64,000 bases of DNA from Octopus vulgaris (lineage: Eukaryota). The translations under genes and the position numbers were made by a program. Of this stretch, positions 6,127 to 62,322 are shown in pieces. Under the pieces are notes generated by a model that saw only the letters and a program-made list of their open reading frames with translations, had not been told where the DNA came from and did not search any database. The DNA is taken from assembly GCA_951406725.2 (NCBI GenBank), contig OX597814.1, positions 206,088,001 to 206,152,000 on the forward strand, read 5' to 3'. The stretch's first letter is position 1. Each line of letters begins with the position of its first letter.

Positions 6127-6360
6127 CACACGGCTCTTTAAAACTTATAATGTAAGTATCAGAGGTTTGTTGTTGAAATGAAGAAATATTTCCACCAGAA
6201 CTTTTTTTTCTGTTTCCAAAATAACTTTTAAGAATCTCAGAGCTGACATTTGAAGAAACGTTTTTCACTTGAACACTGTTTATTTCCTTAATTCTATCCA
6301 CTTTCAGTTGATTTCCTTTTAAGGGGTTGTTTTGGCACATCCTCTGAACATACTCAAAAT
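6127..6360 (-). CDS. PARP14-like: PARP14-like gene, internal coding exon (234 nt, phase 1-1); gene continues beyond the left edge of the window
   Basis: Acceptor tttattgcag at 6361, donor G|GTAAGT at 6126; DFEYVQRMCQNNPLKGNQLKV...VQVKNVSSNVSSEILKSYFGNRKKSSGGNI...YIISFKEP, a second YFxNxKKSSGG RRM-like repeat. No macro, WWE or ART domain exon is visible, so orthology is not proven. Confidence 0.82.
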
Positions 6361-9785: not shown

Positions 9786-10612
9786 ATCTGGCCTCTTACA
9801 CCAACCATACAATATCATTCTAAAAATTAACAATTACCTCGTCAAAATTCCAAAGCTATGAGATAATGCATGATTAATACGAAATGATGTGAATAAATAA
9901 GCAGAACGCTTGACAGGTTAATCTGAATGCTAAAGAGTTAAGGAATGCTCTGAATTATAAAGATGAAAGTGCTAGAAGAAAGAAGAAATGTTTCAGAGTC
10001 TGTAATGAGAAATGGTAAATAAAATGGAGAGGTGAAACAACAGACAAAAGAAAAAATCACACCAACCGAATATATAATCCTGTGTGGAAAGTCCTTTGTA
10101 GAATTTTATTGATTTGAAAATTTTAGTTTGATGTGTTCAATATTATGAGAGTATCATTACTCAACATATTTGTTTTATATTGAAACTATAATTAAAAGTA
10201 AAAGACAGGCAGACCTGTGCATGTGTTTATCATTGGCACAATGATCCTCCCAAAACACACAACATAGATTTTGGTTTAGAATTAAACTATATATTTATTT
10301 TATTATTCTGTAATATGCATTTACAAGGTAAAGACTCAGTTTTCTTTTCGTTTTAGATAGAAATTACATTTGTAACAAGTTCCCTCTATCAATCAAACAA
10401 AGATGGTAAAATATTCCATTTACTTTCCCTCTTTCCAATGTTTAGAAACTGAAGGAATGGTCAAATACTGGAATCAGTTCCACTGATAAAACATTGTCTC
10501 TAATATTTCTGATTTCCTGCCTGATAACCATCATTCCTGACAAATTTCTTTCTTTCCTGATAAATGTGAGAAACCAAAACGCAAAATCTGGGAAGAAATA
10601 AAAGATATAAAT

Positions 10613-11010
10613 AGGTGCAGACAAGGCTGTGTGCTAAGAAGTCTACTTCCCAAACACATGGTTCTGGGTTCAGTCCCACTGCATGGCACCTTGGGTGAGA
10701 ATCTTCTACTGTAGCCTCAGTTCAACCAAGGACATTGTTAGTGGATTTGGTAGATGGAAACTGAAAGAAGCCCAGTATGTGTGTGTGTCTTTGTGTCTAT
10801 TTGTTACCCGCTACTGCTTGATGACTGGTGTCAGTGTGTTTGTGTTCCTGTAACTTAACAGATCAGCAAAATGGAGTGATAAAATAAGTTTCTAGGTTTT
10901 AAAAAGTAGGAACCACTAGGGTCGATCCTTTTGACACAAAAAGATCCTCAAGGTGGTGCCCCAGCATGGCCTGAGTCATTAGATTAAAACAATTAAAACA
11001 CAAAAGATAT
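10613..11010 (+). mobile_element. tRNA-headed SINE, full length, with a non-RTE tail
   Basis: Same head as 6526 and 21997; tail ...aaggtggtgccccagcatggcc...aaaagata. Confidence 0.7.
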
Positions 11011-11079: not shown

Positions 11080-11316
11080 CAATTTCACTTTGGCAGTACA
11101 CAAGAAAAGTTCCAGGTTTTCTTCCAGAGGAAACATATACAATATCTAATTTTCCTGTCTTTTCCAAAAAATCAATTAATGTTTTTTCCGATATGTCTTT
11201 GGGGCCATTTGACACAATCATTGCATCTTCTTGCCAGACTAGATTTTTATACCAGTCCACATGAAGTTTACATCTGCTTATGTTATGGACCTTCCTTTGG
11301 ACAACATTTTCTGCAT
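11080..11316 (-). CDS. PARP14-like: PARP14-like gene, internal coding exon (237 nt, phase 1-1)
   Basis: Acceptor attttcag at 11317, donor G|GTAAGT at 11079; open frame DAENVVQRKVHNISRCKLHVDWYK...PKDISEKTLIDFLEKTG...FLVYCQSEI, in frame with both neighbouring exons. Confidence 0.82.
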
Positions 11317-12016: not shown

Positions 12017-12049
<33 letters not shown>

Positions 12050-12053
<4 letters not shown>

Positions 12054-14378
12054 AGAGTCTGCCGAATGTTGACCCAACAGAGGGACCAGCTATCCGAGTT
12101 GATAGTTCCATGGTAGCTAAGGCAATTAGAAGCATGAAGACAGGGAAAGCCCCAGGCCCATCAGGAATTACTGCAGAGATGCTCAAAATATCTGGCAGTG
12201 TCGGCTATAACCTAGTCACCCGTATAGTCAACCAGGTGATACACGAAGGAGTCATACCCAATGACTGGTGTAGCAGCATACTAGTCAACTGCTACAAAGG
12301 TAAAGGTGATGCCCTAGATACAAATAATTACAGAGGTATCAAGCTGTTAGATCAGGTAATGAAGGTTACGGAGAGGGTCATAGCCCAACTAATTAGAGAG
12401 AGAGTTAGTTTAGATGAGATGCAGTTTGGGTTTGTCCCAGGGAAAAGCACCACTGATGCTATATTCCTGGTAAGGCAGCTGCAGGAGAAATACCTAGCCA
12501 AAGATAAGCCCCTGTACCTGGCTTTCGTTGACATGGAGAAAGCCTTTGATAGGGTCCCCCGATCCCTCATCTGGTGGTCAATGAGGAAACTAGGGATAGA
12601 TGAATGGCTGGTGAGGGCTGTGCAAGCCATGTACAGAGATGCCGTAAGTAAGGTTAGAGTTGGCAACATGTACACAGAAGAATTCAAAGTAGAGGTAGGG
12701 GTCCACCAGGGTTCAGTACTCAGCCCCCTCCTATTTATCATAGTCCTCCAGGCAATTGTGGAGGAATTCAAGACAGGTTGCCCCTGGGAGCTCCTCTATG
12801 CTGACGACCTCGCTCTAATTGCTGAGTCACTATCAGAACTGGAGGAGAAGTTCCAGGTGTGGAAGGAGGGTTTAGAATCGAGGGGCCTTAGAATCAACCT
12901 AGCTAAAACCAAAGTACTAATAAGTAGAAAAGTAGACAATCCACAAATATCCTCAGGAAGATGGCCCTGCTCGATCTGTAGAAAAGGTGTAGGTAGAAAC
13001 TCTATAAGATGTACCCAGTGTAAGCTATGGACACATAAGAGGTGCAGCAATGTCAAAGGTAGGCTAACTGGGAAGATAGTTTTTGTATGTGGCAGATGCT
13101 CTGGAGCATTGACCTCCGAAAATCTGCAGAAAACAACTTCCGTCACTTTCCGGGGGAAAAACTAGAAGTAGTTGATAGCTTCCGCTATCTAGGTGACCAA
13201 GTCAGTAGTGGGGGTGGGTGCGCTGAAAGTGTAACTGCTAGAATAAGAATAGCCTGGGCAAAGTTTAGGGAGCTCTTACCTCTGCTGGGGACTAAAGGCC
13301 TCTCGCTCAGAGTAAAAGGCAGACTGTATGATGCATGTGTACGAACAGCTATGCTACATGGCAGTGAAACATGGGCTGTGACTGCTGAGGACATGCATAA
13401 GCTCGTGAGGAACGAAGCCAGTATGCTCCGATGGATGTGTAATGTCAGTGTACTTACTCGACAGAGCGTTAGTACCTTGAGAGAAATGTTGTACCTAAGA
13501 AGCATCAGTTGTGGTGTGCAAGAGAGACGATTGCGCTGGTATGGTCATGTGGCGAGAATGGATGAAGATAGGTGTGTGAGAAAGTGCCAATCCCTAGCAG
13601 TTGAGGGAACCCGTGGAAGAGGTAGACCCAGGAAAACCTGGGACGAGGTGGTGAAGCACGACCTTCGGACGTTAGGTCTCACCATGGAAATGACTAGAGA
13701 CCGAGACCTATGGAAGTATGCTGTGCGTGAGAAGACCCGGCAAGACTAGTGAAGCCATAACCCGTGGCCCCTACCTGGGACGTAGTCAGTCCACCTGTGC
13801 ATACCTTCCTTCTTGTGACACTTGTGAAGACCTGTTGAGGCAAGTGAGAATCGAATCAAATCAAATCAAATCGAACCAAATCAAAATAGATGAACATCAA
13901 TGGAATTTGTATCCTTGTGGTACCAGTGCCGGTGGCACATTAGAAAACCATCCGAACATGACCGTAGCCAGTACCGCAACGACTGGCCTCCGTGCTGAGG
14001 GCACGTAACAAACACCATCCGAGCGTGACCGTCCGCCAGCCTCGTCTGGCACCTGTGTCGGTGACACATAAGAAAACACCATCCGAGCGTGGCCGTCAGC
14101 CAGCCTCGTCTGGCACCTGTGTCGGTGGCACATAAAAAACACCATCCGAGCGTGGCCGTCTGCCAGCCTCGTCTGGCACCTGTGTCGGTGGCACATAAAA
14201 TCACCCTCTACACTCTCGGAGTGGTTGGCGTTAGGAAGGGCATCCAGCTGTAGAAACACTGCCAGATCTGACTGGCCTGGTGCAGCCTTCGGGCTTGCCA
14301 GACCCCAGTTGAACCGTCCAACCCATGCTAGCATGGAAAGCGGACGTTAAACGATGATGATGATGATGATGATGATGA
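12050..14378 (+). mobile_element. 5'-truncated RTE-clade LINE (RT + PHD-like finger + 3' UTR + (GAT)n), inserted in (TA)n
   Basis: ORFs 12020-13165 and 13087-13749 contain KAPGPSG, QFGF, AFVDMEKAFD, GVHQGSVLSPLLF, LLYADD and RGRGRPRKTW; one frameshift in a G run at about 13152; TA repeats on both flanks. Confidence 0.95.
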
Positions 14379-14405
14379 TATATATATATATATATATATA
14401 TATGT

Positions 14406-14511
14406 ATTGGCCTGCTCACTTAGCCAGCGGGGTGGCGTCATTTGAAGGCTAAAACGATGCGAAGCGCATTGTGACCAGCGATGTGTAGCAGCATCTGATA
14501 GCCTGGTCGGT

Positions 14512-14520
<9 letters not shown>
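14406..14520 (+). repeat. Short interspersed repeat fragment between (TA)n tracts
   Basis: GC-richer 115-bp island ending ggtcggtcacgtgata, flanked by TA microsatellite; family not assigned. Confidence 0.4.
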
Positions 14521-14554
<34 letters not shown>

Positions 14555-15231
14555 TATATATATATGCCATTTGATATTCATTCAGGTTAAGCTGAAGGCA
14601 GGAATTTAGCAACAGAGAGACAACTCCAAGCATGTTTCAGTGTTGAGACCTCTTCGTTATAAAAGCCTACCCATGACCGCCAGATTGTTGATGACTAAAG
14701 AATTTTAATGAGTGGATACGGAATGGTGTGACAACTTGGAATAGAACACTGCTCTACAGTTTCTCTATTGTACCTCCTTGATCGCACTTTAGCCTTTCAA
14801 CACCTAGCATAACCCCTAAATAACCCTTTCGGTTCCTCACTCCATTTAGTAGAAGGAGTGTTTTTCTTTTTTTTTTCTGTCTTGGACATTACTAGGCCAC
14901 CTCACTAGTAATGACAGCAGGAAAATTGCCCCCAGTTCACTCTGTAAAGTGGTTGGTATTAGGAAGGGCAATAGAAACCTTGCTAAAGCTGACCCTAGAG
15001 GTCAATGCTGCTCACCAGATCCTGTCAAACTATTCAATGCAAGCAAACATGGAAAATGAATGTTAAATGACAATGATGATGATTTTTAACATTGCTTTAT
15101 ATTAATCTAATGTGTTTACAGTAATTACATACAAATTGTCCAACCTATGCAAGCATGGACAACAGATATTAAATGATGACAATGATGATGTCTGTAAATG
15201 ATTTCATGAAATAAAGAATATTTCTTCTAAC

Positions 15232-15400
15232 CTTTTTCCGATTCAAAAGTGATAATAACTTCCTCAGAATCTTGGATCCGTTCTGGTTTTCCTTTAATAG
15301 GTCCTCCACTTGATCTCTTCTTGTTCTCAAAATAAGACTGAATGGCTTCCAAATGGAAATCAGTTGGGACTCCTGACACCAATATCCGTTCTGCCCTCAT
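15232..15400 (-). CDS. PARP14-like: PARP14-like gene, probable first coding exon (RRM-like domain 1); whole exon is 15232-15430, ATG at 15400
   Basis: Translates MRAERILVSGVPTDFHLEAIQSYFENKKRSSGGPIKG...VIITFESEK. The YFxxxKRSxGG motif is typical of the PARP14/PARP10 N-terminal RRM-like domains. Acceptor tttgcag at 15431, donor G|GTTAG at 15231 (phase 1), joins the next exon in frame (K-D-A-E-N-V). Confidence 0.8.
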
Positions 15401-17070
15401 CTTCTCCTTCCATACTCGAGGCAGATATTCCTGCAAAATAAAACCAAGATTTAATGCTAGACAAATACAAGTTACTCACCATCCATGTAACAATACTGTG
15501 CTATCCACATCATAAACATCCACTTTACATGTCTGATGTAAACCTGAAATACATGTAGCCTTCAAACAGTCCAGATATGCTAGAAGTAACAGCCAAAGTT
15601 TTTCAAAAGTTCACCCAGTTATTTTTAAAATAGACCAAATACACTTGCCAAAATCGTTTTGTCTTGAGAATATCTGCAAAGAAATTATGGCATTCCTGAT
15701 TGAACAATGCTAATTTCACTCTCAGAAACCAGAGTTCTAACATATGTCCATGAAATCTGAAAGTCACACTTCTCAGCTTTAAAATCTTTAAAAAGATGTT
15801 TTGCAATAAAACAGCCAAACAAATGCCACCAAATGATGCCATTTAGTATGACAAACTTCACCGAAATACACATTTTCCAAACAATTCTTTCTTCAATAGG
15901 CACAAGGCTTGAAACTTTGGGGGAGAGGTTAATCAATTAGATAAACCCCAGTGTATAACTGGTACTTACTTTATTGACCCTGAGGAGATGAAAGGTAAAA
16001 TTGACCTCAGTGGAATTTGAACCCAGAACATAAAGATGGATGAAATGTCACTGAGCATTTTGTCCACATTTTCCAAACAATGACAATGACCACAACAACA
16101 ATAACAACCAAAAGTACCAATCTGATAAGCCTGATTAATGCCACAACATCATATAGAATACATTCAACAAAAGAACACCCCAACCATTCACCCACCAAAC
16201 TAAACCAGGTGAACCTAATTTATAAATACTGCTTTGTGTTGGGCCCTTAATTCCTTGATAGGGTTGTATGGGGCACTATGGTCAGAAATGGCATGTCTTG
16301 GGTATTTTTAGACCCGGAGGGACCAGGGGATGTGGTGATTTGCTGTACTTGAAAAGTCATGTGAAGCTAAGTAAAATCGCTGCCTTCCATACATACAGAC
16401 TTGTCCTTTCATGGGTGGGTGCCACATAAAAATACACCCTTGCCAGTGGCATGTAAAAATCACCCAGCACATTCTGTTAAGTGGTTGACATTAGGAAGGA
16501 CATCCAGCTGTAGATACCATGCCACAACAGACAACTGGAGCCTGGCCAGCTCCAATACAAACAATCCAACCCATGCCATCATGGAAAGAGGGCATTAAAC
16601 AATGATGTCAAGGCCATCCTTCTGCAAGAATGACCAAAACTGGTTTCTTCTAAAAAGAGGGAGAGAGAAACAGAAAGAAAAAGTGAGAGGCTGAGAAGAA
16701 TTGACCCCAGTACTTTGTTTATTGACTCCAAAGTGATCAAAGACAAAATTGATTTGAGCGTCGCAAAGAGTCAGAAGGATTGCCACAAAGCAACCTATCT
16801 GGTGCTCTACTGACTCTGTGACTTGACCACCTCATAAACACAACAGAAATCACCTAAAAACAAGTTTATGTCACTAAAACATGCTGTCTTTACACATAAC
16901 ATTTTCTCTCACGATAATTCAGAAACACTTTTTACAAACCACAACACAGGACACCTCAAATATTTAATTAAATTGTTTATAACAAAGATAGCGAACCAGA
17001 GCAGAGATTGAAAAACTTTCAGGGCACTAACCAAAAACAGAAAAATCAGAAAACATCAATCTTATAGAAA

Positions 17071-18652
17071 CTAGCAGGCGTATCCAGCGTTGCCCAGGGC
17101 TGTTTGTTAAGTATGCCTGGTCAGCGTTGTCTTCTTGCAAGGAACCAATTCTAGGGTAAATCTGCCCCTGCACTTTAAAGGAAGGCATGAAATGCCCATC
17201 TCGTATGATGTTGGGGCCAAAGGAAGTAATTTGGAATGTGCAGTTGTAGGCATGTATCAGCTTGAGAAAGTCATGAAAATAATGAGACGCCCCTGTCAAA
17301 AGGGGTGGAGGATCTTGTAGAAGAGGTACTGTTATCTTACAGGTGGATCAGCTCATGCCAGGAGTTTCTCCAGGCCAAAGTTTAGCTCTGCAAAATTGGC
17401 AGATTGTGGGCATGCAGCGTATTTGAACATCAGGGTGATTACTGTGGTCAGTTGTAGGATTGTAGTTGAATGCTGTCATTGACCAACGCGAGGAGCATGG
17501 CCTTGAGTAGGAACGTTGTGCAGCCCTTCGCCGAGTTGTTGTCTCCAGTCGTTGTGGTCTTTCCCCTGTAGTGTCTGTAGCACACGCAGCAGCAGTTGCT
17601 GCAGCATCTCTTGTATACCAAACTGCACATTGTGCTGCAGCTCGTACAGCAGTAGTAGAGGAAGCATTTCTTGTTCGGCGTGCTGAACATTGCTCATTGC
17701 TCTGGATGGCTCGTTGTGCTAACCATTCACAACGCTGCTCCTCACTTTCCCTTCTTCGCACTGAAGCCATCCTATGTGCATTGAGAGAGTTCCTCCTGGC
17801 GGCGTTTTCAGCAGATTCATTTGCATGCATGCGTTTACTTTTCTTTGCAGCATTTGTTTGCCCACCTATATTGGAACTTTTGTGTCGAGGTATGGTGGAA
17901 AATTATCAGTTTATGCAATAGAAAAAGTCCTAAGGAAAAAGCGGTGAATGTATAGCACCCAAAAAATAGTAACATGTAGTTTGTAAAAATGTTTTTCAAG
18001 CAGACTGAATTGATTTTGGGTAAGAGTTTTGAAGTGGCTAGTTTAAGTTGGAATAGTTATATGGAAAAAAGCACTCATGTGTAAACAGAGGCAAATCGTA
18101 GCTTGCAAATGAATATTGCTGGCAGTACTGTGCAAGCAGTCGATAAGAGCTTGTCGCAGCTGACAAAGTAAAGTATTGATTTTTCCCAGTTGGGCATGTT
18201 ACGTTTTTCACTGGCTCAAGCCAAATCCTAGGCAAATTGAGAGTAGTCTATTTATGCTGGGAGTGCAGAATTTTGAGGAAAAAATTATACGAAAAAGCGT
18301 CCCAAGTCAAAGAGAGGACACATGTCAAATTTGGTGAAATTCGGTTGGAAATTGTAGGAGTAGAAGTGGTTCACACAACATACACACAGAAACAAACAGC
18401 CAACTTGCCTTTTAATATATAAGATCAAACACATACCATTGCATAGATGTGGTGGGTTCAAATCCTTGGTGAATTGAGAGTAGTCTATTTATGTTGGGGG
18501 TGTGGAATTTCAAGGAAAAAATCATAAGAAAAAAGTGTCCTAAGTCAAAGAGAGTACACATGTCAAATCTAGTGAAATTCAGTTGAAAATTGTAGGAGTA
18601 GAAGTGGTTCACACAACAGACAGACAGACAACTTGCCTTTTAATATATAAGA
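17071..18652 (-). mobile_element. Internally deleted Helitron with Rep N-terminal remnant and duplicated 5' terminus
   Basis: 5' A|TCTTATATATTAAAAGGCAAG at 18424 and again at 18652; 3' end CTAG|T at 17071 preceded by a GC-rich hairpin-like segment; ORFs include CQFCRAKLWPGETPGM and YNCTFQITSFG...FMPSFKVQGQIYPRIGSL. Confidence 0.85.
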
Positions 18653-18668
18653 TACAAGAAAATGAAGT

Positions 18669-19010
18669 AGTTAGTTAATTAGTTAGTTAATTTTTTGGCT
18701 CAGAAAGCAAAAAGCAAGGCCATGTAGTGGGGACATGGAGTTAGGTACAGGGTGGTGTTCATGTAAAGAGTTCATGCCACTTGTGGTCAAGGGAGACTTT
18801 GAACCGAGCGATCGTCGGCATCCTCACCATCTCGTCCGGCAGCTTATTCCATGGATCCGCAACCCGGACGGAGAAAGCCCCTCTCCTTCGATTGAGATGA
18901 AATCGTCGCAGATAGAGCTTTTCGGAATGACCCCGCAGCCGACGCTCTGGAGCAGGAGTGAAGAACAGCTCTTTCGAGAGGTTACACTTTCCGCTTATGA
19001 TGTAGATTAT
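18669..19010 (-). mobile_element. CR1-type LINE 3' end with (TAAC)n-like tail
   Basis: Minus strand translates ...LRGHSEKLYLRRFHLNRRRGAFSVRVADPWNKLPDEMV...FKVSLD, the CR1 C-terminal motif. Confidence 0.8.
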
Positions 19011-19348
19011 TATGTGTCCAACCCTTGGTTTTGAACCAAATAATACGGCAATGGTGATTGGTCAATTGTTTCGTTGGGGTTGTGGTACTCCTGTCACAAT
19101 GCCAGTCACCGTGACTCCAGCTAAAATGTGGAAAGCAAGGAAACCAAACCTGTTGCTGTTTTTTTTTCACTTTGTGTTTTAACAGACTAATGTGCAACTT
19201 TTGGGTTACAACTGGCCAATCAACAAGGCTCAGCAAATTCTCAACAAGTTATTCTTTGGTGCCTTACCAATGCATTACATAAAGAACCCTCAAAGTTGAA
19301 TTTAATCAGAAAGGAGTGAGTTGCCTTAGCAACAGGATGGTTTACCAA

Positions 19349-19769
19349 TCTATATATATCTATAATATAAATTGGACATGAGCGATCCTTGTATTATTTC
19401 TTGTCTTGAGGTTCACGACCAAATGGCAGGATGAATTCGTGTAAAAAATGGCACACATGTGGAGATGGGTGCATAGATTGGAATGCAGTTTGTATTTTTT
19501 TCCTAGCCTCCCTACATACCGAGAAAATCGATAAAAACCTTTTCCTATTGGAATTCCCCTCTTTCTTCCGCCATTAAAACATCCAGTTGCTTAGAAGCTG
19601 TTTTTTGACAGGATGAAGCCAGGAAATTTTCATATAGTTGGAGGATCCAATCGAAACTGGGGACCTGAAATGATAAGGTTGAGAAATGGTGTTATAGATT
19701 ATGCCTAACCGAAAACAATCATAGCCACAACATCCAAACAGACCGGGTGAAACCGGGCTTAGCTGCTAG
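19349..19769 (+). mobile_element. Non-autonomous Helitron
   Basis: A|TCTAT 5' end, 3' hairpin CCGG-gtgaaa-CCGG (19743-19756) and CTAG|T terminus. Confidence 0.65.
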
Positions 19770-19934
19770 TATAATATAAATACACTTTCTGCCTTTAGAG
19801 ACCAGCTTAAAGCACAGGAGTGCATGCACACAGACAGACACACACACACACGCACACACTGTGTCTCTCTTAATGAATCTCTAAAAGGTAACACATTATT
19901 AAAGACAGAAACATTCACATTAAAATTAGATATA

Positions 19935-21400
19935 GAGCTGGGTGGTGTCTAAATCTAAATGTGTTTAATATAAATGTTCTTATAATTAAACACATTGAGA
20001 TATAGACACCACCCGGCTCGTGACATTGGCCTATATCGTGGTGACAGTTTGAGTATTTCCCATGGGTGTGATGGTCACACCCTTGATAGATTTAGAAAGC
20101 AAATAATTTCTACCTTTAATCAATTAGGACCGAAAATCTCAGTAACTACTAAGGAGCACTCCATCGGTTACGACGACGAGGGTCCCAGCTGATCCGATCA
20201 ACGGAACAGCCTGCTCATGAAATTAACATGAAAGTGGCTGAGCACTCCACAGACACGTGTACCCCTAATGTAGTTCTCAGGGAGATTTAGCATGACACAG
20301 AGTGTGACAAGGCCAGCCCTTTGAAATACAGGTACAACTCATTTTTGCCAGCTGAGTGAACTGGAGCAACGTGAAATAAAGTGTCTTGCTCACAGAGACA
20401 ACGTGTCACAAGGAATTGAACTCACAACCTTACAATCGTGAGCTGAATGCCCTAACCACTAAGCCACGCTTATTAAGATGTTTCCCTAGATTTAAACTCC
20501 TCCTCATATAAACCTTTCCATAAGCCTAATGAGAAACTCACATATATCCTTAGCATATAAAAAGCTGATAGCTAATATTAGTAACAGAGTGTCTAACCTC
20601 TCTTCTTCCAAAGAAATTTTCGACAAAGCTGCACCCTATTATAACAAGGCCCTAGCCAATAGTGGCTTCAAAGATAAATTAATATATAATCCCTCTAATA
20701 ATAATCAAAATATTAATAATAGATCAAAGATAAAGTAGTTCGTAACTATTCCAGTATTAATCAGGATAATGAGAAACGTAAAAATAGATCAGGGAATAAT
20801 TATTTGGTTTGCCCTCCCCCCCTTTCTCCTGAATATAAAAACTAAATTTGGTAAAAGATTCCTGTCGCTCCTAGACAAACATTTTCCAGCCCCTCACAGA
20901 TAGAGGAAAATATTCAATAGGCGTTCTGTGAAATTATCATATAGCTGCTGCTGCCCCACTTTGAAGAGTATCATTACACGTGGTCAATACCAAGAGCCTG
21001 AATCCAGTTGCAATTGTTGTGACTCAGAATCCTGTCCACTTGACCAACGATGTATGACTAAATCTATCATATATGAGGCAGAAGCTACTGCAACCGTAAA
21101 TAATAATGCAACTGTTAAGAAGACCTATGCTGGATTATGAGAAGGAGAATTTAAAAATCGCTATGCCAATCACATAGGACATAAGGACAAAAGTAAAGCT
21201 ACCAAGTTGGCTAGATACATATGGACTTTGAAAGATAATGAAATACCGCATGGGATTAAATGGAAAATAATTGAGAAATCCATACCTTATGATATGTGGT
21301 TTGCGCCAGAAGAATATGTTTGAGATTTCTCAACATATGAAACTACTAGTAGCGCTTTAATACATGTATTGTGACCTTTAGATAAATAATATTTATCTCT
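19935..21400 (+). mobile_element. Decayed Penelope-like element (Naiad-like): RT C-terminus, linker and GIY-YIG endonuclease, interrupted by a SINE
   Basis: IGLYRGD, DVSLDLNSSSYKPFHKPN, IFDKAAPYYNKALANSGF, FLSLLDKHFP, KLSYSC, CNCxxxxxCPLxxxC, IIYEA...TYAGL*EGEFKNRY, LARYIWTLKD...IKWKII. Confidence 0.85.
20153..20470 (-). mobile_element. SINE nested within the Penelope relic
   Basis: Same family as 37933-38315; Penelope RT homology resumes after it. Confidence 0.75.
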
Positions 21401-21996
21401 CACAAGATGGAGTACTTTTTTTGTTGAATTTTCTATCATGGATCAATACTTTATATGTATATATACATATTTAATATAATAAATGTGGAAATTAATGTCA
21501 GTGTGTCACACTTAGACCCCACTCTCTCACTATTCAATAACACTCCTACTATTCCTCATGATGGGGTGAGAGTAATAGTAGGCATAGGTGAGGGTGGTGG
21601 TGAAGAAAGACAGTGAGAGAGAGAAAGAAAAAGAGAGGGAGAGAAATAGAAACAAAGAAATTTTGGGAGTTGATATTTTTATTAAAAGTAGTAGTGTTGA
21701 TGGTGGTAGTGCAAGTAATAATAATAAGAGAGAGAGAAAGAGGGATTCAACATTGAAGTAACCTGCTGAATAACATACTAAACAAACACACACTTTTAGC
21801 CATGTAACCATGAAAAATTGTGCTTTAGCTCAGTAGTTTTCAATGTGGATCCTGTACAATGATGAACTGAGATGAAGAAACTTGTTTAAAAAACACTCTG
21901 AAATATGTTGCTAGAAATTCTGTCTTTACTAATTTACTAACTTCATTTTTAAAAACAAGAATAAAGAAAAAAAATAATCTAAAAAACAGAAAGACA

Positions 21997-22148
21997 TAGG
22001 CGCAGGGGTGGCTGTGTGGTAAGTAGCTTGCTTACCAACCACATGGTTCTGAGTTCAGTCCCACAGTGTGGCACCTTGGGCAAGTGTCTTCTACCATAGC
22101 CTTGGGCCGACCAAAGTCTTATGAGTGGATTTGGTAGGTGGAAACTGT
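21997..22148 (+). mobile_element. 5' half of a tRNA-headed SINE split by the RTE LINE
   Basis: Colinear with 10613-10765; the 3' half resumes at about 26330-26565. Confidence 0.75.
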
Positions 22149-25100
22149 ATCATCATCATCATCATCATCATTTAACGTCCGCTTTCCATGCTAGCATGGG
22201 TTGGACGGTTCAACTGGGGTCTGGGGAGCCCGAAGGCTGCACCAGGCCAGTCAGATCTGGCAGTGTTTCTACAGCTGGATGCCCTTCCTAATGCCAACCA
22301 CTCCGAGAGTGTAGTGGGTGATTTTATGTGCCACCGACACAGGTGACACAGGTGCCAGACGAGGCTGGCTGACGGCCACGCTCGGATGGTGTTTTTTATG
22401 TGCCACCGACACAGGTGCCAGATGAGGCTGGCGAACGGCCACGATCAGATGGTGTTTGTTACGTGCCCACAGCACGGAGGCCAGTTGATCCGGTACTGGC
22501 TACGGCCACGTTCGGATGGTTTTCTTGTGTGCCACCGGCACTGGTACCACAAAGATACAAATTCAATTGATGTTCATCTATTTTGATTTTGTTTGATTTT
22601 CACTTGCCTCAACAGGTCTTCACAAGTGTCACAAGAAGGAAGGTATGCACAGGTGGACTGACTACGTCCCAGGTAGGGGCCACGGGTTATGGCCTGACTA
22701 GTCTTGCCGGGTCTTCTCACGCACAGCATACTTCCATAGGTCTCGGTCTCTAGTCATTTCCTTGGTGAGACCTAAAGTTCGAAGGTCGTGCTTCACCACC
22801 TCGTCCCAGGTTTTCCTGGGTCTACCTCTTCCACAGGTTCCCTCAACTGCTAGGGTGTAGCACTTTTGCACACAACTATCTTCAGCCATTCTCGTCACAT
22901 GACCATACCAGCGCAGCCGTCTCTCTTGCACACCACAACTGACGCTTCTTAGGTTCAACTTTTCTCTCAAGGTACTTACACTCTGATGATTATGAACACT
23001 GACATTACACATCCATCGGAGCATACTGGCTTCATTCCTCACGAGCTTACGCATGTCCTCAGCAGTCACGGCCCATGTTTCACTGCCATGTAGCATAGCT
23101 GTTCGTACACATGCATCATACAGTCTGCCTTTTACTCTGAGCGAGAGGCCTTTAGTCACCAGCAGAGGTAAGAGCTTCCTAAACTTTGCCCAGGCTATTC
23201 TTATTCTAGCAGTTACACTTTCAGCGCACCCACCCCCACTACTGACTTGGTCACCTAGATAGCGGAAGCTATCAACTACTTCTAGTTTTTCCCCCCGGAA
23301 AGTGACGGAAGTTGTTTTCTGCAGATTTTCGGAGGTCAATGCTCCAGAGCATCTGCCACATACAAAAACTATTTTCCTAGTTAGCCTTCCTTTGACATTG
23401 CCGCACCTCTTATGTGTCCATAGCTTACATTTGGTGCACCTTATAGAGTTTCTACCTACACCTTTTTTACAGATCGAGCAGGGCCATCTACCTGAAGTCG
23501 TTTGTGATTGGTCCACCTTCCTACTTATTAGGACTTTGGTTTTGGCTAGGTTGATTCTAAGGCCCTTCGATTCTAATCCTTGTTTCCACACCTGAAACTT
23601 CTCCTCCAGTTCTGATAGTGACTCAGCAATTAGAGCAAGGTCATCAGCATAGAGGAGCTCCCAGGGGCAACCTGTCTTGAATTCCTCCGTTATTGCCTGG
23701 AGGACTATGATAAATAGGAGGGGACTGAGGACTGAACCTTGGTGGACCCCTACCTCAACCCGGAATTCTTCACTGTACTCGTTGCCAACCCTCACCTTAC
23801 TAGCAGCGTCTCTGTACATGGCTCGCACAGCTCTCACTAACCATTCATCTATCCCTAGTTTCCTCATTGACCACCAGATAAGGGATCGGGGACCCTGTCA
23901 AAGGCTTTCTCCAAGTCAACAAAAGCCAGGTACAAGGGCTTATCTTTGGCTAGGTATTTCTCCTGCAGCTGTCTTACCAGGAATATAGCATCAGTAGTAC
24001 TTTTCCCTGGCACGAACCCAAACTGCATATCATCTAAGCTAACTCTCTCTCTAATTAATTGAGCTATAACCCTCTCCGTAACCTTCATTACCTGATCCAG
24101 CAGCTTGATGCCCCTGTAGTTATTTGTATCTAGGGCGTCACCTTTACCTTTGTAGCAGTTGACTATTATGCTGCTACACCAGTCATTGGGTATGACTCCT
24201 TCGTGTATCACCTGGTTAACTATACGGGTGACTATGCTATAGCCGACACTACCAGATGTTTTGAGCATCTCTGCAGTAATTCCTGATGGGCCAGGGGCTT
24301 TCCCTGTTTTAATGCTTCTAATTGCCTTAACTACTAAGGAGCTGTTAACTCGGATTGCTGGTCCCTCTGTTGGGTCCACATTCAGCAGACTCTCTTTATC
24401 CCATTCATTTTTCTCATTCAGCAACCTTTCATAGTGGCGTCTCCAAGCCTCTCTCTTTGCATCCTCATTTAGCGCAAGTGAACCGTCATCCTTGCGAACA
24501 CATTTCTCTCCTACCACATCACGATTCTCTCTCACACACTGTCTTGCAACACGAAATACCTCAAGTCTTTCATCCTCACAGCACAGGACATTGGCAAATT
24601 TTTTCTTATCTGCTTCCCCTCTGGCTAGATAGACCTGTCTCCTAGCTTCCCTTCTGGCAGTCTGATACACTTCCCTGCTACCACCGTTCTTCCAGGCCTT
24701 CCAAGCCTGTTTCTTTTGTCTAATAGCCCTGTCAACAATATTGTTCCACCACCACGTTATTTTGGGTCTTAAGGGGACTTTGCACCAGCCACAGATCTGG
24801 TCAGTGGCTTTCAGCAGGTTGTCCCTCAGAAGCGTCCAGTTGTCTTCTACCCCATGCGTAGCTATACCCCCTTCCATTTCGTCAAAGGCTTCAAGTAACA
24901 TGTCTCTAAATCTCTGTCCATTCGCAGGGTCTTTAAGCTTCCAGACCCTTCTTCTCCATGTTGGTCGCCCTCTTATTCCTGATCCTAAAGTCACTAACTA
25001 CCAGTCTATGTTGTGGGGTGCATTCTTCGCCTGGGAAGGTTTTGGCATTTATAAGCAGCCATCTCTCCCTTTGCCTGGCAAGGATGTAGTCGATTTGGCT

Positions 25101-26300
25101 AGTATGCCGGCCCAATCGGTAGGTGACTAGGTGGCCTGTCGGTTTCCTGACGTTAGTGTTGCAGACCATAAGACTATTCGCATCGCAGAACTCCAGCAGC
25201 CTGGTTCCCTCCTCGTTGCGGGAACCATAACCGTAGCCTCCATGTACGTCATGGAAGCCCCCAGCATGTCGTCCAACATGCCCATTGAAATCACCAGCCA
25301 CAAAGAGAAGGTCCCTGTCGTTCGTCAATGAGGTGGTCTGCAATAGGGTGTCATAGAAACTGTCTTTCTGTCCATCGGGTAGCCCTGGCTGAGGGGCATA
25401 GGCCGATATAATGGTTGCTAATCTATTATGAAGCACTCTTCTAATCTTAAGTATTCTGTCACTTACTCTGATTACCTCAATTACTCTATCTACCCATTTC
25501 TCAGCGATAAGTATACCCACGCCACCAACCCCGTCAGTGTTCCCTGCCCAGAAAATCTTGTACCTGTGTTCCTTGCCTGTGAGGAGCCTAGCAGATCCTC
25601 CTCTCCACCTTATTTCTTGCATGCAACATACATCAACAAATCTCCGTTCAAGCATCTCGACTATCTCGCCAGATCTACCTTTCAGTGTGCCAACGTTGAG
25701 GGTGTGGAAGGTATGGGCCCGAGAGGCCCAGGGACGGGGAGCAGTGGCGTCATGTACCTGAAAAGAAGAAAGCTCGCATTTGGCAGAATTGATAAGCAAA
25801 GCAATGATCTTAAGTTCAACCTGTTACCCTACACTATCATGTTTTGCGCTGTATGGTCACCACCTTATATAGAAGGGGTGGTATTGGCTTAAGGCCTTTA
25901 GGTGTTCATGGAAGAAAAGCAAAGGAAGACAAGGTGAGATAAGGACTTCCGGTACAGGTGGAGGGGGCGGGAGGGCGGGCGCACCGCGCACTGGGAAAAG
26001 ATGAGATTTAGGCGGCAGAAAGACAAGATTTGAGACGAAATGCTTTGCGGTCGTGTGAATAAGTTTCTATGAGTGAAAGTTGGGAAAGATGGGGTAGAGA
26101 TTAAGCGACAGAAAGACCAGATTTGAGACGAAATGTTTTGCGGTCGTGTGAATAAGTTTCTGTGAGTGAAAGTTTATATGCTTCAGCTAGCATTTGAGAC
26201 GAAAGACAACGATAACGATAATAAAAGGGGAAACAATAAGGCTTGATGGTGATAATAATACTTGCAAAAATACAATGAAAGGAGGAAACAGGTCGGAAAC
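22149..26300 (-). mobile_element. Apparently full-length RTE-clade LINE (~4.15 kb): 5' UTR, APE endonuclease, RT, PHD-like finger, 3' UTR, (GAT)n; two frameshifts
   Basis: ORF 24933-25799 (TLNVGTL, MQEIRW, SAYAPQ, GDFNGH, QIDY), ORF 23864-24994 and ORF 22698-23867 (YADD); (CAT)n on the plus strand at 22149-22171; ~90-bp direct repeat in the 5' UTR (about 26005-26173). Confidence 0.95.
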
Positions 26301-26329: not shown

Positions 26330-26565
26330 TATATATATATAATTATGTATGTATACATGTTTGTGTGTCTGTGTTTGTGACCCCACCATCGCTTGACAAC
26401 CAATGTTAGTGTATTTACATCTCCATAACCTAGCGGTTCAACAGAAGAGACCGATAGAATAAGTACTAGGCTTACAAAGGATAAGTCTTGGGGTCGATTT
26501 GCTCGACTAAAGGCGGTGCTCCAGCATGGCCACAGTCAAATGACTGAAACAAATAAAAGAATATA
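26330..26565 (+). mobile_element. 3' half of the SINE begun at 21997
   Basis: Colinear with 10775-11010 (...ggggtcgattt...aaggcggtgctccagcatggcc...aaaagaata). Confidence 0.7.
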
Positions 26566-27709
26566 TCTATGAAGCTGGTCATAAAATTTCTTTGGGAATT
26601 CCTTAGAAAGATGAAAGAAATAATACCCAGAAAAAATAACGTCAACAACAGCAACAACATTATGGATAAACACTAAAATTGAAATTCTTAATGCATCTTA
26701 TCTGTTTGATTTGTTACAAAAATTATCCCAGATGGCAACCAACAAAAAGTTTGCCACTTTTCAAGATGAGGTACATTAATTTGAATTAATTGAAATACAG
26801 GTATAACTGATACAAGATTTTATTCTTTCGGTAAATATTTCATACCTTAGTGTGGAATAATTTTTTGGAGTGCATTCAATGTATCTGAACTCCAAACTCG
26901 CCCCAAGCTACTTTTTTTCCAGAAAAGAAAGGTGGGAGGGGTGGTAGAGACCTTGAAGTTTCCCACAAAGGGAATTTTGTTTCACGAGTCCTTTTTTTCT
27001 TTTCCAGAATATTTTGCATGCTTTCAATGAATCTGACATCGAAATCATGCATAAATGGCTCCTTTTTCCAGAAAAGATTTGGCTGTTATTTCTAGCATGC
27101 CCTACTACCACATAACAATTATTTCCATTGACACCGAAATATTTACCAGAGTTTTCCCTTCCATTTATTTTTTCCACTTTATGGAAGTTAATATTTTCTA
27201 TGTTGACATCCTCCTCAGTTAATTGTGCTTTTCACCCACTTCTCTGCTTTCTAGAAGAAAAGCCCTTACATTATCTCAAAGCTATGAGAATTCACTAATA
27301 TGATTTGTTTATTTTCTAAACAGATTTCGTCGAGGAATCAGATACAACGGGTTTTGGCCATTTTAAACATTAAAGGGTTAAAAGTGCCAAAACTATAAAA
27401 TCAGCCTTTTTGAGGGCTTTTTGAGGGCTTTAGAACCCAAAAACTATATAGTTTTTTTTGTTTTGAGGTTTTTTTCGCTTAAGAGTTAAAAATCCTGATT
27501 TTATAGTTTTAAATTTCAAAGGGCCTAAAAAAAGGCTGATTTCATAGTTTTGGCCCTTTTTAAGGTTTTTAAAGGGTTTTAGAGCCAGAAAAGGTAAAAA
27601 ATAAAACTCAAATGAAACATAATATTAGTATTAAACTAAAAGAAGTTTACTGATAAGGTGATACTTTGATACTTTGATAGGTTTCAGCCATTATTGGCCC
27701 AGGCCATGT

Positions 27710-29227: not shown

Positions 29228-31215
29228 AGGAAATGTCGACCGTATTCCATTGAATATCTGTCTTGTGGCTGTATTCTATCAGCACAGAATGAAGGGAAAA
29301 CAATGTCTCAGCCATGCCAGCTCAGAATTCCTTCAGAGACCAAGTTCAAAGACAACTAAAACAATCCAGTAGAATATTTTAGAAAACTGCACAATGAATT
29401 CCAAGCAAGGAAAATGGAGAATAAGTGTCAAAATCATAATGGTTGACTGGAATCCTATGAAATTTCTAAAATGATAGCAAAGATTGGGAAACCCCATAAT
29501 ATTGGTGAAACTAATTTTGCCAGTGGTATCTGTCATAGTGTCATCATTTATGAAACAAAATGCTACTGAGATTACTTGTAAGATTCCTTTAAGCAACTCA
29601 TCAGTGTCACGGTGCGTCGATGAAATGGCTAAGATGGAGAGAAGCAACCTGTAGCCAAACTGCAAGTAAAGAAATTTTTTCTTCAACCTGATGAATCTAC
29701 CCTGAGAGACAGTAAAGCTATAGTATTGGCATATAATCGTTTTTTTTTTTGGTGGTGGTGGTGGTGGTGGTGGTGGTGGTGGTGGTGGTGGGGTGTAATG
29801 AATTCAGAGAGGAAATTCATTTTACCAGACATCTTAAAACAGATACTAAAGGCAAAACAAATTTTCAAAGGCTCTATAACTTATTTCGAGGAACATAATA
29901 TTCCCCTGGGAAATGTGAGAGTTTGTGCTAATGACTGTGTTCCGCCCATGATTGGCAGATACAGAGATTTTGTTGCCTGTTGAATAAATGGTATTTTCTA
30001 TACACTGTGTGATAACACCAGTAAAACCTACTTGTGAAACAATCAAGAGCACATCTGCACGATCCCCTTAATATTGTAATATTATTTACAAGATCACATA
30101 TTTCATGAATTCTGTAATCAAAATGAAGAAATTGAATGCTTTGTAATTCACACGAACATGATATGGTTATCAAACTGTCTGCGTCATTTTTTTTTGTACT
30201 TTGGTATATTATTGTTTCATTCCTGGCTAACAACAATCACAGCCAACAAATGATTGCAGCTAAAAGTACAACTGCACTTCCACTCCACAAATGGTTGCAG
30301 CTAAATGCGATATATTTTATTTATCAGAAAAATTTGATAAAATATATCTGACAAACAGCTTCAAGAAGACTTTGACCTCATATCCTCCAAAGGAGCGATT
30401 GCTGCTTTTCTGGGGAAAGTACAGCTCTAGGAAATAAATATTGTATGCTGTGTATTATTAGAATTTCCCTGTTTGGAATCAATTAACAGTAATCTGCACG
30501 ATGACGACCTTGTTTACTGAACATTTGAAAAGCTTGCATAATGATATGCAAGGTCAGTTTAATGACCTGCTGCAGTTAAATATACCGCGTTGGGTGACAT
30601 TTCATGTTGCTGGTGTAGATATCTGTTTGCAGGAGAATCTCATTGAATTGCAGAACGATGAAATATTTCAAGCAAGATTTAAAGATGGAGAACGTAATGT
30701 ATGGTAAAAAAAATGACACTGCTACAAAGTATCCATTATTCTGGTGGGGGAGTGCAGTTGTACTTTACTACTTTTCCTTTATCTTACCTTGTTGAATCTG
30801 GTTTCAGCCATGTCGCTAATTTACTGTGAACAGCTCATAATTGAATCGACATTGTAGAAAAAGGTGATCTTCAATTATCATTGACAACACAAGAGCAGAA
30901 CAATTTAAAACTAACAAAGCAGCACCAACCACCAGACTTGCATTAAAGAAATTAACACAAAGGTACTACCTTATGTAAATAAATATATACCTGTATATTT
31001 ATTTTACTTGGGAGCATTCATTTTCCGTAGAATTTAGTTGTTAAGAAATTGGTTATAGGTCCACAGTACACAAGATATTTTAACGACTTTTATACAAGTC
31101 CTAATTTGACTTTTTTAAACATCGAATGGGTATGGTGGGTGTGGGGGAGGGTCCCAAGGAGTAAAATAGGAATCAAAGGGGTTCTCAGGTAAAAAAAAAA
31201 GCTTGAGAACCCCTG
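29228..31215 (+). mobile_element. Decayed hAT (Charlie/Buster, SCAND3-like) DNA transposon with right TIR
   Basis: Fragments RKCRPYSIEYL, IPLSNSSVSRCVDEMA, LQPDESTLRDSKAIVLAY, IHCVI, LQENLIELQND and SYLVESGFS; terminal ttgagaacccctg (reverse complement CAGGGGTTCTCAA) ending at 31215; contains (TGG)n at 29750-29791. Confidence 0.85.
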
Positions 31216-32870: not shown

Positions 32871-33276
32871 AAGTGTATCTATAAAGCGACATTTTCGGTC
32901 ATTTGTTTAAACTTTCTCTCCTAAATCATCAAATTCAATTATTTGAAGGAGATGGGTTTTGAGATTTAAATTTGGCAATTTTCTAAGATTTTAATTCTTG
33001 TGTATAAGGGGCTCATCGATCTTGAAGTGCCTCGTGCCCCCTATGGTTTAAATCCGACCCTGCATCTGAAAGGTATTTGCAGAACATTTCACGAAAATAA
33101 AAAAAATAAAAAACATCAATTTTTCTGAAAGTTATGAGAAAACAAAGTCATGGGGCAAAGTTGTGTGGTTATGATGTAGTGAAAAGTATTGAAAGTGACT
33201 TTGTGAAGAATGTGTAAAGCAATCGAAAAATGGGTTTACAGAAATTAAATTAGGAAGTTGTAAAGCGCAAACTTAC

Positions 33277-33370
33277 CTCGTAACAACTCAGAGCAAAATT
33301 GAAACTTGAATATTTATATGATGGTTTTTAAGTCGTTGATTGGTTTAACAATTTTGTATGATATCAATGT
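33277..33370 (-). other. Candidate first (non-coding) exon of the PARP14-like gene; 5' boundary unknown
   Basis: Consensus donor GAG|GTAAGT at 33276, directly downstream (on the minus strand) of a cluster of promoter motifs. Confidence 0.4.
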
Positions 33371-42121: not shown

Positions 42122-42714
42122 GAAGAAAAAGAATAATGATATTATGAATAATAATAATATTAATAATAATAAAAATAATAATAATAAGAATAAGAATAAT
42201 GATATTAATAATAATAATAATGAGAATAATAATAATAATCATCATCACCATCATCATCATTTAGCGTCCGTTTTCCATGCTAGCATGGGTTGGACGGTTC
42301 AACTGGGGTCTGTGAAGCCAGAAGGCTGCATCAGGCCCAGTCTGATCTGGCAGTGTTTCTACGGCTGGATGCACTTCCTAACGCCAACCACTCCGTGAGT
42401 GTAGTGGGTGCTTTTTACGTGCCACCCGCACAGGTGCCAGACAGAGCTGGCAAACGGCCACGAACGGATGGTGCTTTTACGTGTCACCGGCACGGGGGCC
42501 AGGCGAGGCTGGCAATGGACACGAACGGATGGTGCTTTTACGTGCCACCGATGCAGGGGCCAGACAGAGCTGGCAAACGGCCACGAACGGTTCGTGCTTT
42601 TATGTGTCACCTGCACGGGGGCCAGGCGAGGCTGGCAACGGACACGAATGGATGGTGCTTTTACGTGCCACCGACACGGAGGCTAGACGGGACGGCGCCG
42701 GCAACAACCAATAA

Positions 42715-49378: not shown

Positions 49379-62322
<12,944 letters not shown>

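Follow-up and report, generated by a model that had tools for sequence, protein, structure and literature searches.

Two RTE-type LINEs in inverted orientation around the start-codon exon of a PARP14-like gene copy in Octopus vulgaris

The locus described here is a 64,000-nt window of Octopus vulgaris (the whole stretch of DNA that was analyzed, to which all coordinates refer), in which two long interspersed nuclear elements (LINEs) of RTE type bracket, in opposite orientations, the start-codon exon of a PARP14-like paralogue read on the minus strand. The best described counterpart is TBXT, where an AluSx1-AluY pair likewise places reverse-complementary retroelements in both introns around an exon (PMC10901737). 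Weak exon definition, which is also found here, is expected to help skipping in TBXT and in the Alu pairs surveyed genome-wide (PMC10901737, PMC13019027). However, the TBXT arms are of ~300 nt and lie 1448 bp apart, and skipping was proven by deletion and transfer; this pair dominates, and a pair 4188 bp apart gives a minor product (PMC10901737). The genome-wide study of skipping by inverted Alus used windows up to 5 kb, beyond which LINE copy 2 lies (PMC13019027). In maize, inverted pairs derived from LINE1-like elements flank a circularizing exon, as established by statistical enrichment and expression data (bioRxiv 10.1101/100578). The present locus, in contrast to both systems, is known from sequence alone, and its arms are of 2.2 kb and 7770 nt apart (TBXT values from PMC10901737). 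Mouse circSry also has long inverted repeats around a start-codon exon, but there the repeats belong to a segmental palindrome, the distal promoter has been mapped, and the circle is abundant, whereas the arms here are transposon copies (PMC9684031). Finally, substrates of ADAR hyper-editing resemble this locus in having similar inverted copies potentially in one pre-mRNA (PMC5625713, PMC9068888, PMC4066801), although in edited Alus the average editing is near background at a distance of 7770 nt and lower across introns (PMC4066801).

Compared with the class of repeat-driven circles and exon skipping, the LINE pair has the geometry and lacks the proximity. Plants are not known to have the strong ADAR activity of octopus. 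Among the papers listed in literature searches, no single-locus repeat-driven loop-out was found for a cephalopod, and the only work listed on cephalopod back-splicing was a genome-wide survey (PMC9699675).

The inverted LINE pair and its two copies

The following features define the arrangement.

12050 to 14378, plus strand: LINE copy 1, with reverse transcriptase (RT), PHD-like finger, C-terminal part, 3′ untranslated region (UTR), and (GAT)n tail; 5′-truncated
15232 to 15430, minus strand: bracketed exon with the first RNA recognition motif (RRM), 199 nt, CAG acceptor and AAG/GTTAGA donor
22149 to 26300, minus strand: LINE copy 2, nearly full length, with 5′ region, APE endonuclease, RT, PHD-like finger, 3′ UTR, and tail

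The inverted pair around the start-codon exon is real. BLAST of the window against itself revealed an inverted match of 12048-14137 with 24399-22322 (91.7% over 2100 columns, E value 0.0), which was extended by a second one of 13992-14373 with 22541-22149 (87.6%). When 12050-14378 was globally aligned with the reverse complement of 22149-24400, there were 2101 matches, 147 mismatches, and 85 gap columns, that is, 93.5% identity of the aligned bases over ~2.3 kb, with a longest exact run of 118 nt. Thus, the inverted colinear pair first noticed in a reading of the letters only (hereafter the sequence-only reading) was confirmed by both methods and lies far above chance. The proteins, which had been called nearly identical, are closely similar rather than near-identical, sharing the same residue in 519 of 563 ungapped codons (92.2%). 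The end of the minus-strand copy had been placed at ~24,400, where merely the shared part (22149-24399) stops; the element itself runs to ~26,300 and includes the endonuclease, its 5′ end being approximate. The two arms sit in different introns, on either side of the exon, at distances from it of 853 nt (copy 1) and 6718 nt (copy 2), 7571 nt in sum. The loop between the arms is 7770 nt, and their (GAT)n tails point at each other.

That both copies are LINEs is supported by their Pfam domains. Copy 1, antisense to the host gene, matches RVT_1 (E value 1e-32) and PHD, and has one 1-nt frame break near 13153 within a G run. Copy 2, sense to the host gene, matches Exo_endo_phos (PF03372) at 24936-25823 and then RVT_1 (PF00078), across two frame changes near 24933-24997 and near 23885. 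The 1-nt breaks of both LINEs lie in homopolymer runs, and nanopore and linked reads underlie the published assembly of O. vulgaris (PMC13282606); judging from these two circumstances, some of the frame breaks may be assembly errors. A single open reading frame (ORF) with an APE endonuclease followed by RT in copy 2, and a microsatellite (GAT)n 3′ tail in place of poly(A) in both copies, are features of RTE elements, among which microsatellite 3′ tails are described as common. There was no minus-strand ORF of at least 120 codons for a separate ORF1 in 25823-26300, where the 5′ end is possibly incomplete. Both LINEs fit the RTE clade, a label taken from architecture rather than from a tree.

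The architecture of RT plus PHD-like finger recurs in many relatives from marine animals. Among the 120 matches listed of 2196, the named relatives come from Octopus, Hydractinia, Branchiostoma, and Mercenaria; two are named octopus proteins (83-84% identity), and none is a named RTE reference. The PHD-like finger follows the RT at 12965-13100 and 23350-23480, and no paper on such a post-RT finger was found by title. RTE-2_OV, a brain-expressed element of the same species, resembles the two copies in having a single ORF with endonuclease and RT and a microsatellite 3′ end, but a C2H2 finger is reported there, in contrast to the PHD-like finger after RT here (PMC9115989). Identity with RTE-2_OV was rejected, as none of four primers, out of 12 published element-specific walking primers, matched within three mismatches.

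The differences between the copies also bear on their origin. Nonsynonymous divergence (dN) was 0.040 and synonymous divergence (dS) 0.213, giving a dN/dS of 0.19 (Fisher p 1e-18), and 72 of the 122 coding differences fell at third positions. Because the differences are mostly synonymous, the divergence arose in active source elements and not by local copying. The insertion sites are unrelated, and each is low-complexity or repeat DNA: a (TA)n run for copy 1 and, for copy 2, an older short interspersed repeat, which it splits into the two halves below.

21981 to 22147, plus strand: left half of the split repeat, with 77% identity to the beginning of the copy at 10591-11010
26352 to 26566, plus strand: right half of the split repeat, 72-79% identical to other copies in the window

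Judged from these substitution patterns, the LINEs are shown to be two separate insertions of one abundant RTE-type family, each from a diverged source lineage of its own. A rough estimate from the overall divergence and the published O. vulgaris rate of 0.0036 per million years (PMC13282606) makes the insertions at most ~10 million years old, and probably younger. Identity is mosaic along the pair. A 400-nt block from 13047 has only eight mismatches (permutation p 0.0008; post hoc) and is also poor in synonymous differences (4 of 132 codons versus 56 of 431 elsewhere; likewise post hoc). Conversion between the arms and recombination among source elements would both produce such a block.

LINEs make up 12.9% of the O. 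vulgaris genome; the RTE elements, which fall into 176 families, account for 106,052,287 bp, and 182 of their copies were recently active (PMC13282606). The last 170 nt of copy 1 gave 12 BLAST rows in the searched parts of the window. Inverted matches of at least 50 bp bracket all three host exons in the window (16, 11, and 13 BLAST rows), and a long inverted bracket of >90% identity was found only around exon 15430-15232. A crude chance model, in which the family is assumed to account for 5-25% of RTE DNA and its copies to measure 1.5-3 kb, with 150,000 exons and the intron sizes of the present gene with a start at 33.3 kb likewise assumed, gives 4e-6 to 4e-4 per exon, or 1 to 62 bracketed exons per genome. 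By this model, which is no test of selection, such bracketing is rare per exon and expected per genome, and the present arrangement would be an ordinary by-product of a repeat-rich genome.

Exon frame and transcription start of the host gene

O. vulgaris CAI9716691.1 (P0004), a protein named PARP14-like, is matched at 100% by the bracketed exon and by the exon that follows it.

11080 to 11316, minus strand: next coding exon, 237 nt, GTAAGT donor
6127 to 6360, minus strand: third coding exon, with an RRM, 234 nt; missing in the public model of the locus

The PARP14-type RRMs PF23085 and PF23222 were found on the window exons (below the cut-off when taken alone) and on P0004 (above the cut-off). 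P0004 carries a single Macro domain and lacks a PARP domain; the exons for the Macro and PARP catalytic domains lie outside the window. The homologue matches support the claim that the host is an octopus PARP14-like gene with the family start codon in the bracketed exon. Fourteen related PARP14-like proteins were found, seven from O. vulgaris and seven from O. sinensis, some of them redundant or orthologous. The same longest contig is given for all seven O. vulgaris proteins, which suggests that they are on one chromosome. The innate-immune role is known from mammalian PARP14. P0004-P0017 represent an expanded PARP14-like family in Octopus, on which no paper was found by title. Exon 6127-6360 has canonical splice sites, preserves the reading frame, and has counterparts in 9 of 13 homologues, at 63-71 residues; it is itself bracketed by short inverted repeats of 77-86%.

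The donor of the bracketed exon had been described as weak (GTTAG), and it proved to be the weakest of the three gene donors by pairing with U1 (−5.6 kcal/mol, versus −9.1 and −10.7 kcal/mol for the next two), a simple proxy for donor strength rather than an octopus splice-site model. The frame at the beginning of this exon is broken.

15411 to 15413, minus strand: family start codon; opens a 17-codon frame here, and several O. sinensis RefSeq homologues start at the same Met
15398 to 15400, minus strand: second ATG, 13 nt below the family start; shares its frame with the RRM and the exons that follow
15385 to 15387, minus strand: extra base relative to the homologues; tblastn matches split into two frames at 15387/15385

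In all 13 other proteins, the start of the bracketed exon reads through into the RRM in one frame, a count to be taken with the bias of annotated proteins toward intact frames. Here, the frame from the family start codon is not open and reaches a stop after 17 codons. As judged from the sequence, the PARP14-like copy may rely on leaky scanning, be decaying, or be mis-assembled. The exon length of 199 nt given by the sequence-only reading stands for the sequence as given, but not if the extra base is an assembly error; without it, the exon is 198 nt and symmetric like the neighboring exons. The term "ATG-less" for an mRNA that skips this exon is inexact, since exon 11316-11080 has an in-frame ATG at 11221. 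As this ATG stands behind five out-of-frame ATGs, the exon-skipped mRNA is probably unproductive.

Whether both arms are in one RNA depends on where transcription starts. As the family start codon is 17 nt into the bracketed exon, some upstream exon or a longer 5′ end is needed, which is a point in favor of co-transcription. The positions concerned are given below.

15473 to 15482, minus strand: strong donor-like site, 49 nt above the acceptor at 15430
15770 to 15842, minus strand: candidate upstream exon, with homology to residues 1-24 of O. sinensis XP_029655528.2 (P0013)
30788 to 30811, minus strand: first exon of the public O. vulgaris model, eight codons, bridging the frame break of the bracketed exon
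33270 to 33300, minus strand: candidate upstream donor of the sequence-only reading, GAG/GTAAGT at 33277, strong by consensus and U1 pairing

The candidate exon 15842-15770 (22 of 25 residues identical, E value 1e-10) lies inside the loop, 339 nt above the acceptor, and XP_029655528.2 is one of the closest homologues (48 of 51, 69 of 78, and 69 of 76 residues over the three exons). It is not repeated in the searched parts of the window, and its donor is weak in this sequence. The first exon of XP_029655528.2 may be no more than a prediction, and there could be another exon ahead of it. When the frame that contains 15842-15770 was used in a protein search, none of 24 candidates matched, which is weak evidence. 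The segment 15431-15482 is an open frame that serves as the N-terminus in the paralogue model P0005.

Exon 30811-30788 of the public O. vulgaris model lies in a probable hAT-derived (FAM200/ZBED5-like) relic. We give this model little weight, considering its doubtful first exon and the omission of exon 6360-6127. The relic is a candidate decayed hAT-derived transposase at 29300-30950 on the plus strand, with an Atlas lead to FAM200/ZBED5 (score 0.95, low recognition); Pfam was silent on it, and the stretch nearer to the exon had no usable Atlas match.

Transcription had been assumed to start near 33.3 kb. The strong donor there stands, but the start itself is an assumption that is not visible in the sequence, and no transcript or homologue supporting it was found. 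In 15440-36600 minus one 200-base stretch, 8 of 1183 GT sites agreed with the donor consensus at 8 or more of 9 positions; of these, copy 2 contains one, two are located between it and the exon, and five, including 33277, lie above it. Over 15.5-36.5 kb, apart from one 1-kb step, CpG and GC content showed no clear promoter island. Copy 2 could also provide a start of its own; AATAAA is absent from its 549-nt 3′ UTR and occurs three times in the loop. With the public O. vulgaris and O. sinensis models in disagreement, co-transcription of both arms did not hold up as a settled point, and on the sequence evidence we give it slightly better than even odds. The frame break and the conflicting first exons matter for the annotation of the PARP14-like cluster.

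Predicted duplex, RNA fate, and explanations of the arrangement

If both arms are in one RNA, the predicted duplex contains 2101 Watson-Crick pairs, 50 G-U pairs, 44 A-C mismatches, and 53 other mismatches. For nine 200-nt blocks, the energies predicted at 37 °C ranged from −306 to −411 kcal/mol per block for pairing between the arms, versus −83 to −121 kcal/mol for local folding. For the tail of copy 2, the values were −385 kcal/mol with copy 1 and −219 kcal/mol with a competing tail in the same intron. These energies bear out the proposal of a very stable duplex. In the folding model, thermodynamics favors pairing of the arms, and kinetics would be the deciding question.

Distance enters here. 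Alu editability falls with a decay length of 800 bp and is lower across different introns (PMC4066801); at 7770 nt this formula, which was fitted on 300-nt arms, predicts essentially background. Repeat-dependent human circular RNAs (circRNAs) have arms within ~2300 nt (PMC6487579), compared with 7571 nt here, so that the proximity of repeat-driven circles is lacking. Many circRNAs come from exons that carry the start codon and have long introns on either side (PMC6487579), and circles from start-codon exons are mostly repeat-independent (PMC6487579, PMC7819710). In O. vulgaris, 296 high-confidence circRNAs were reported in 18 tissues, a scarcity that the authors link to ADAR, and editing falls mostly in introns and 3′ UTRs (PMC9699675). 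The word "PARP" was absent from the searched supplement text of that survey, a text that does not contain the list of the 296 circRNAs. The hyper-editing signal is strongest in octopus among the surveyed animals (PMC5625713), and non-neural editing in coleoids is aimed at repeats (PMC9068888).

The pair is a plausible ADAR substrate if both arms are co-transcribed. By analogy with these systems, A-to-I editing would then be the likely outcome and would counteract circularization. Overall, detectable editing from the LINE pairing is a tentative expectation with the odds against it, and a measurable circle or skipping is improbable. The circRNA or exon-skipped mRNA that the sequence-only reading derived from the fold did not find support, given the 7.8-kb loop, the arms in different introns, and the low abundance of circRNAs in octopus; a functional circle or skipped mRNA is unlikely.

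The explanation we favor, with a probability of about 0.7, is a chance arrangement, without, as we infer, a selected splicing role. Two independent insertions of the same LINE family would have landed by chance, in opposite orientations, near a duplicated PARP14-like gene, the truncated copy in the (TA)n run below the exon and the nearly full-length copy in the older short repeat 6.7 kb above it. In a transcript starting above copy 2, the arms could form a 2.2-kb duplex, which would presumably be A-to-I edited and melted by ADAR, with the exon still spliced in normally. If the start is within the loop, no duplex would form. This PARP14-like paralogue may be in decay, or else the extra base in its exon may stem from a fault of the assembly. 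Several points weigh against the chance explanation. The public O. vulgaris model puts copy 2 in intron 1. The arms are ~8 times the length of an Alu and 93.5% identical, so that the Alu distance rules may understate their pairing, which is also far more stable than local folding or pairing with the competing tail in the same intron. The 4188-bp Alu pair in TBXT still gives minor skipping (PMC10901737), and long inverted repeats circularize mouse Sry (PMC9684031). The donor of the exon is weak, and the 400-nt block of high identity could reflect conversion between the arms.

The weak donor is the best point for the fold of the sequence-only reading, in which the pre-mRNA loops out the start-codon exon and a circRNA or skipped mRNA lowers PARP14-like output. 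The geometry would be right if transcription starts above 26.3 kb, the predicted duplex is long and strong, and precedents exist in TBXT, Sry, and the maize LINE pairs; moreover, circRNAs often come from start-codon exons with long flanking introns (PMC6487579). However, one homologue model contradicts co-transcription, the 7.8-kb loop is asymmetric, octopus circRNAs are scarce (PMC9699675), circRNAs from start-codon exons are generally repeat-independent (PMC6487579), and the frame of the exon is broken from the family start codon. We consider this fold unlikely. If true, it would be, judging from the papers listed, a first single-locus repeat-driven loop-out in a cephalopod and would test distance rules derived from 300-nt Alus on 2-kb LINE arms under very high ADAR activity. 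A different transcript would arise by read-through from a promoter of copy 2 itself, via the exon, into the antisense copy 1, giving a hairpin that is edited or diced and damps the LINE family or the gene copy. The 5′ region of copy 2 is preserved, and the copy runs in the sense direction of the host gene, points toward copy 1, and has no AATAAA in its 3′ UTR; such a transcript would be independent of a host start at 33.3 kb, and coleoid editing outside neurons targets repeats (PMC9068888). But its promoter is putative, three AATAAA sites lie in the loop, and splicing at 15232 would take out copy 1, and we regard this hairpin as highly improbable. LINE arms paired across 7.8 kb under extreme ADAR activity as a transposon-made switch on one member of the expanded PARP14-like cluster, in which the editing state would set whether the start-codon exon is kept, skipped, or circularized, or else a self-silencing read-through hairpin, would be a very unlikely outcome, and a working regulatory switch would be at best equally so. 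In that case, were one of the insertions polymorphic, animals in the wild would provide a natural on/off test of LINE pairing over long distances and of the trade-off between ADAR and back-splicing.

Two further explanations concern the origin of the pair. Local inverted duplication of one copy, or homogenization of the arms by gene conversion, would agree with the mosaic identity and with the 400-nt block from 13047, which is poor in synonymous differences too. Duplication of a whole copy is ruled out by the dN/dS of 0.19 and the unrelated flanks; for conversion, both block tests are post hoc, and recombination in the source lineages explains the mosaic equally well. This origin has a low probability of less than one in ten. 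An assembly artefact could be suspected from a large near-identical duplication elsewhere in the window and from the 1-nt breaks in homopolymer runs of the LINEs. However, mis-joining of one sequence is excluded because the divergence (6.5%, with a pattern of purifying selection), the unequal lengths, and the clean, differing junctions set the copies apart, and an artefactual pair is extremely improbable.

Other features of the window

The large duplication is a tandem one at 36640-63633, with a unit of ~13 kb and an identity of 92.6% overall and 98.3% in the non-satellite part. It is rich in (AAT)n runs and in an A/T-rich satellite of 12-73 nt, and it represents either a recent segmental duplication or uncollapsed haplotypes. 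Two further 3′ tails of the same LINE family lie within the duplicated block at 42251-42415 and 54946-55110 on the minus strand (~92%).

Pfam named none of the other intronic relics (0 of 10 informative). The broken ORFs at 17030-17900 resemble the start of a Helitron Rep protein, and those at 20490-21320 the C-terminal part of a Penelope-like element, Pfam supporting neither. At 2140-2761, four head-to-tail copies of a 155-nt unit (96-99%) include a piece of the common short repeat.

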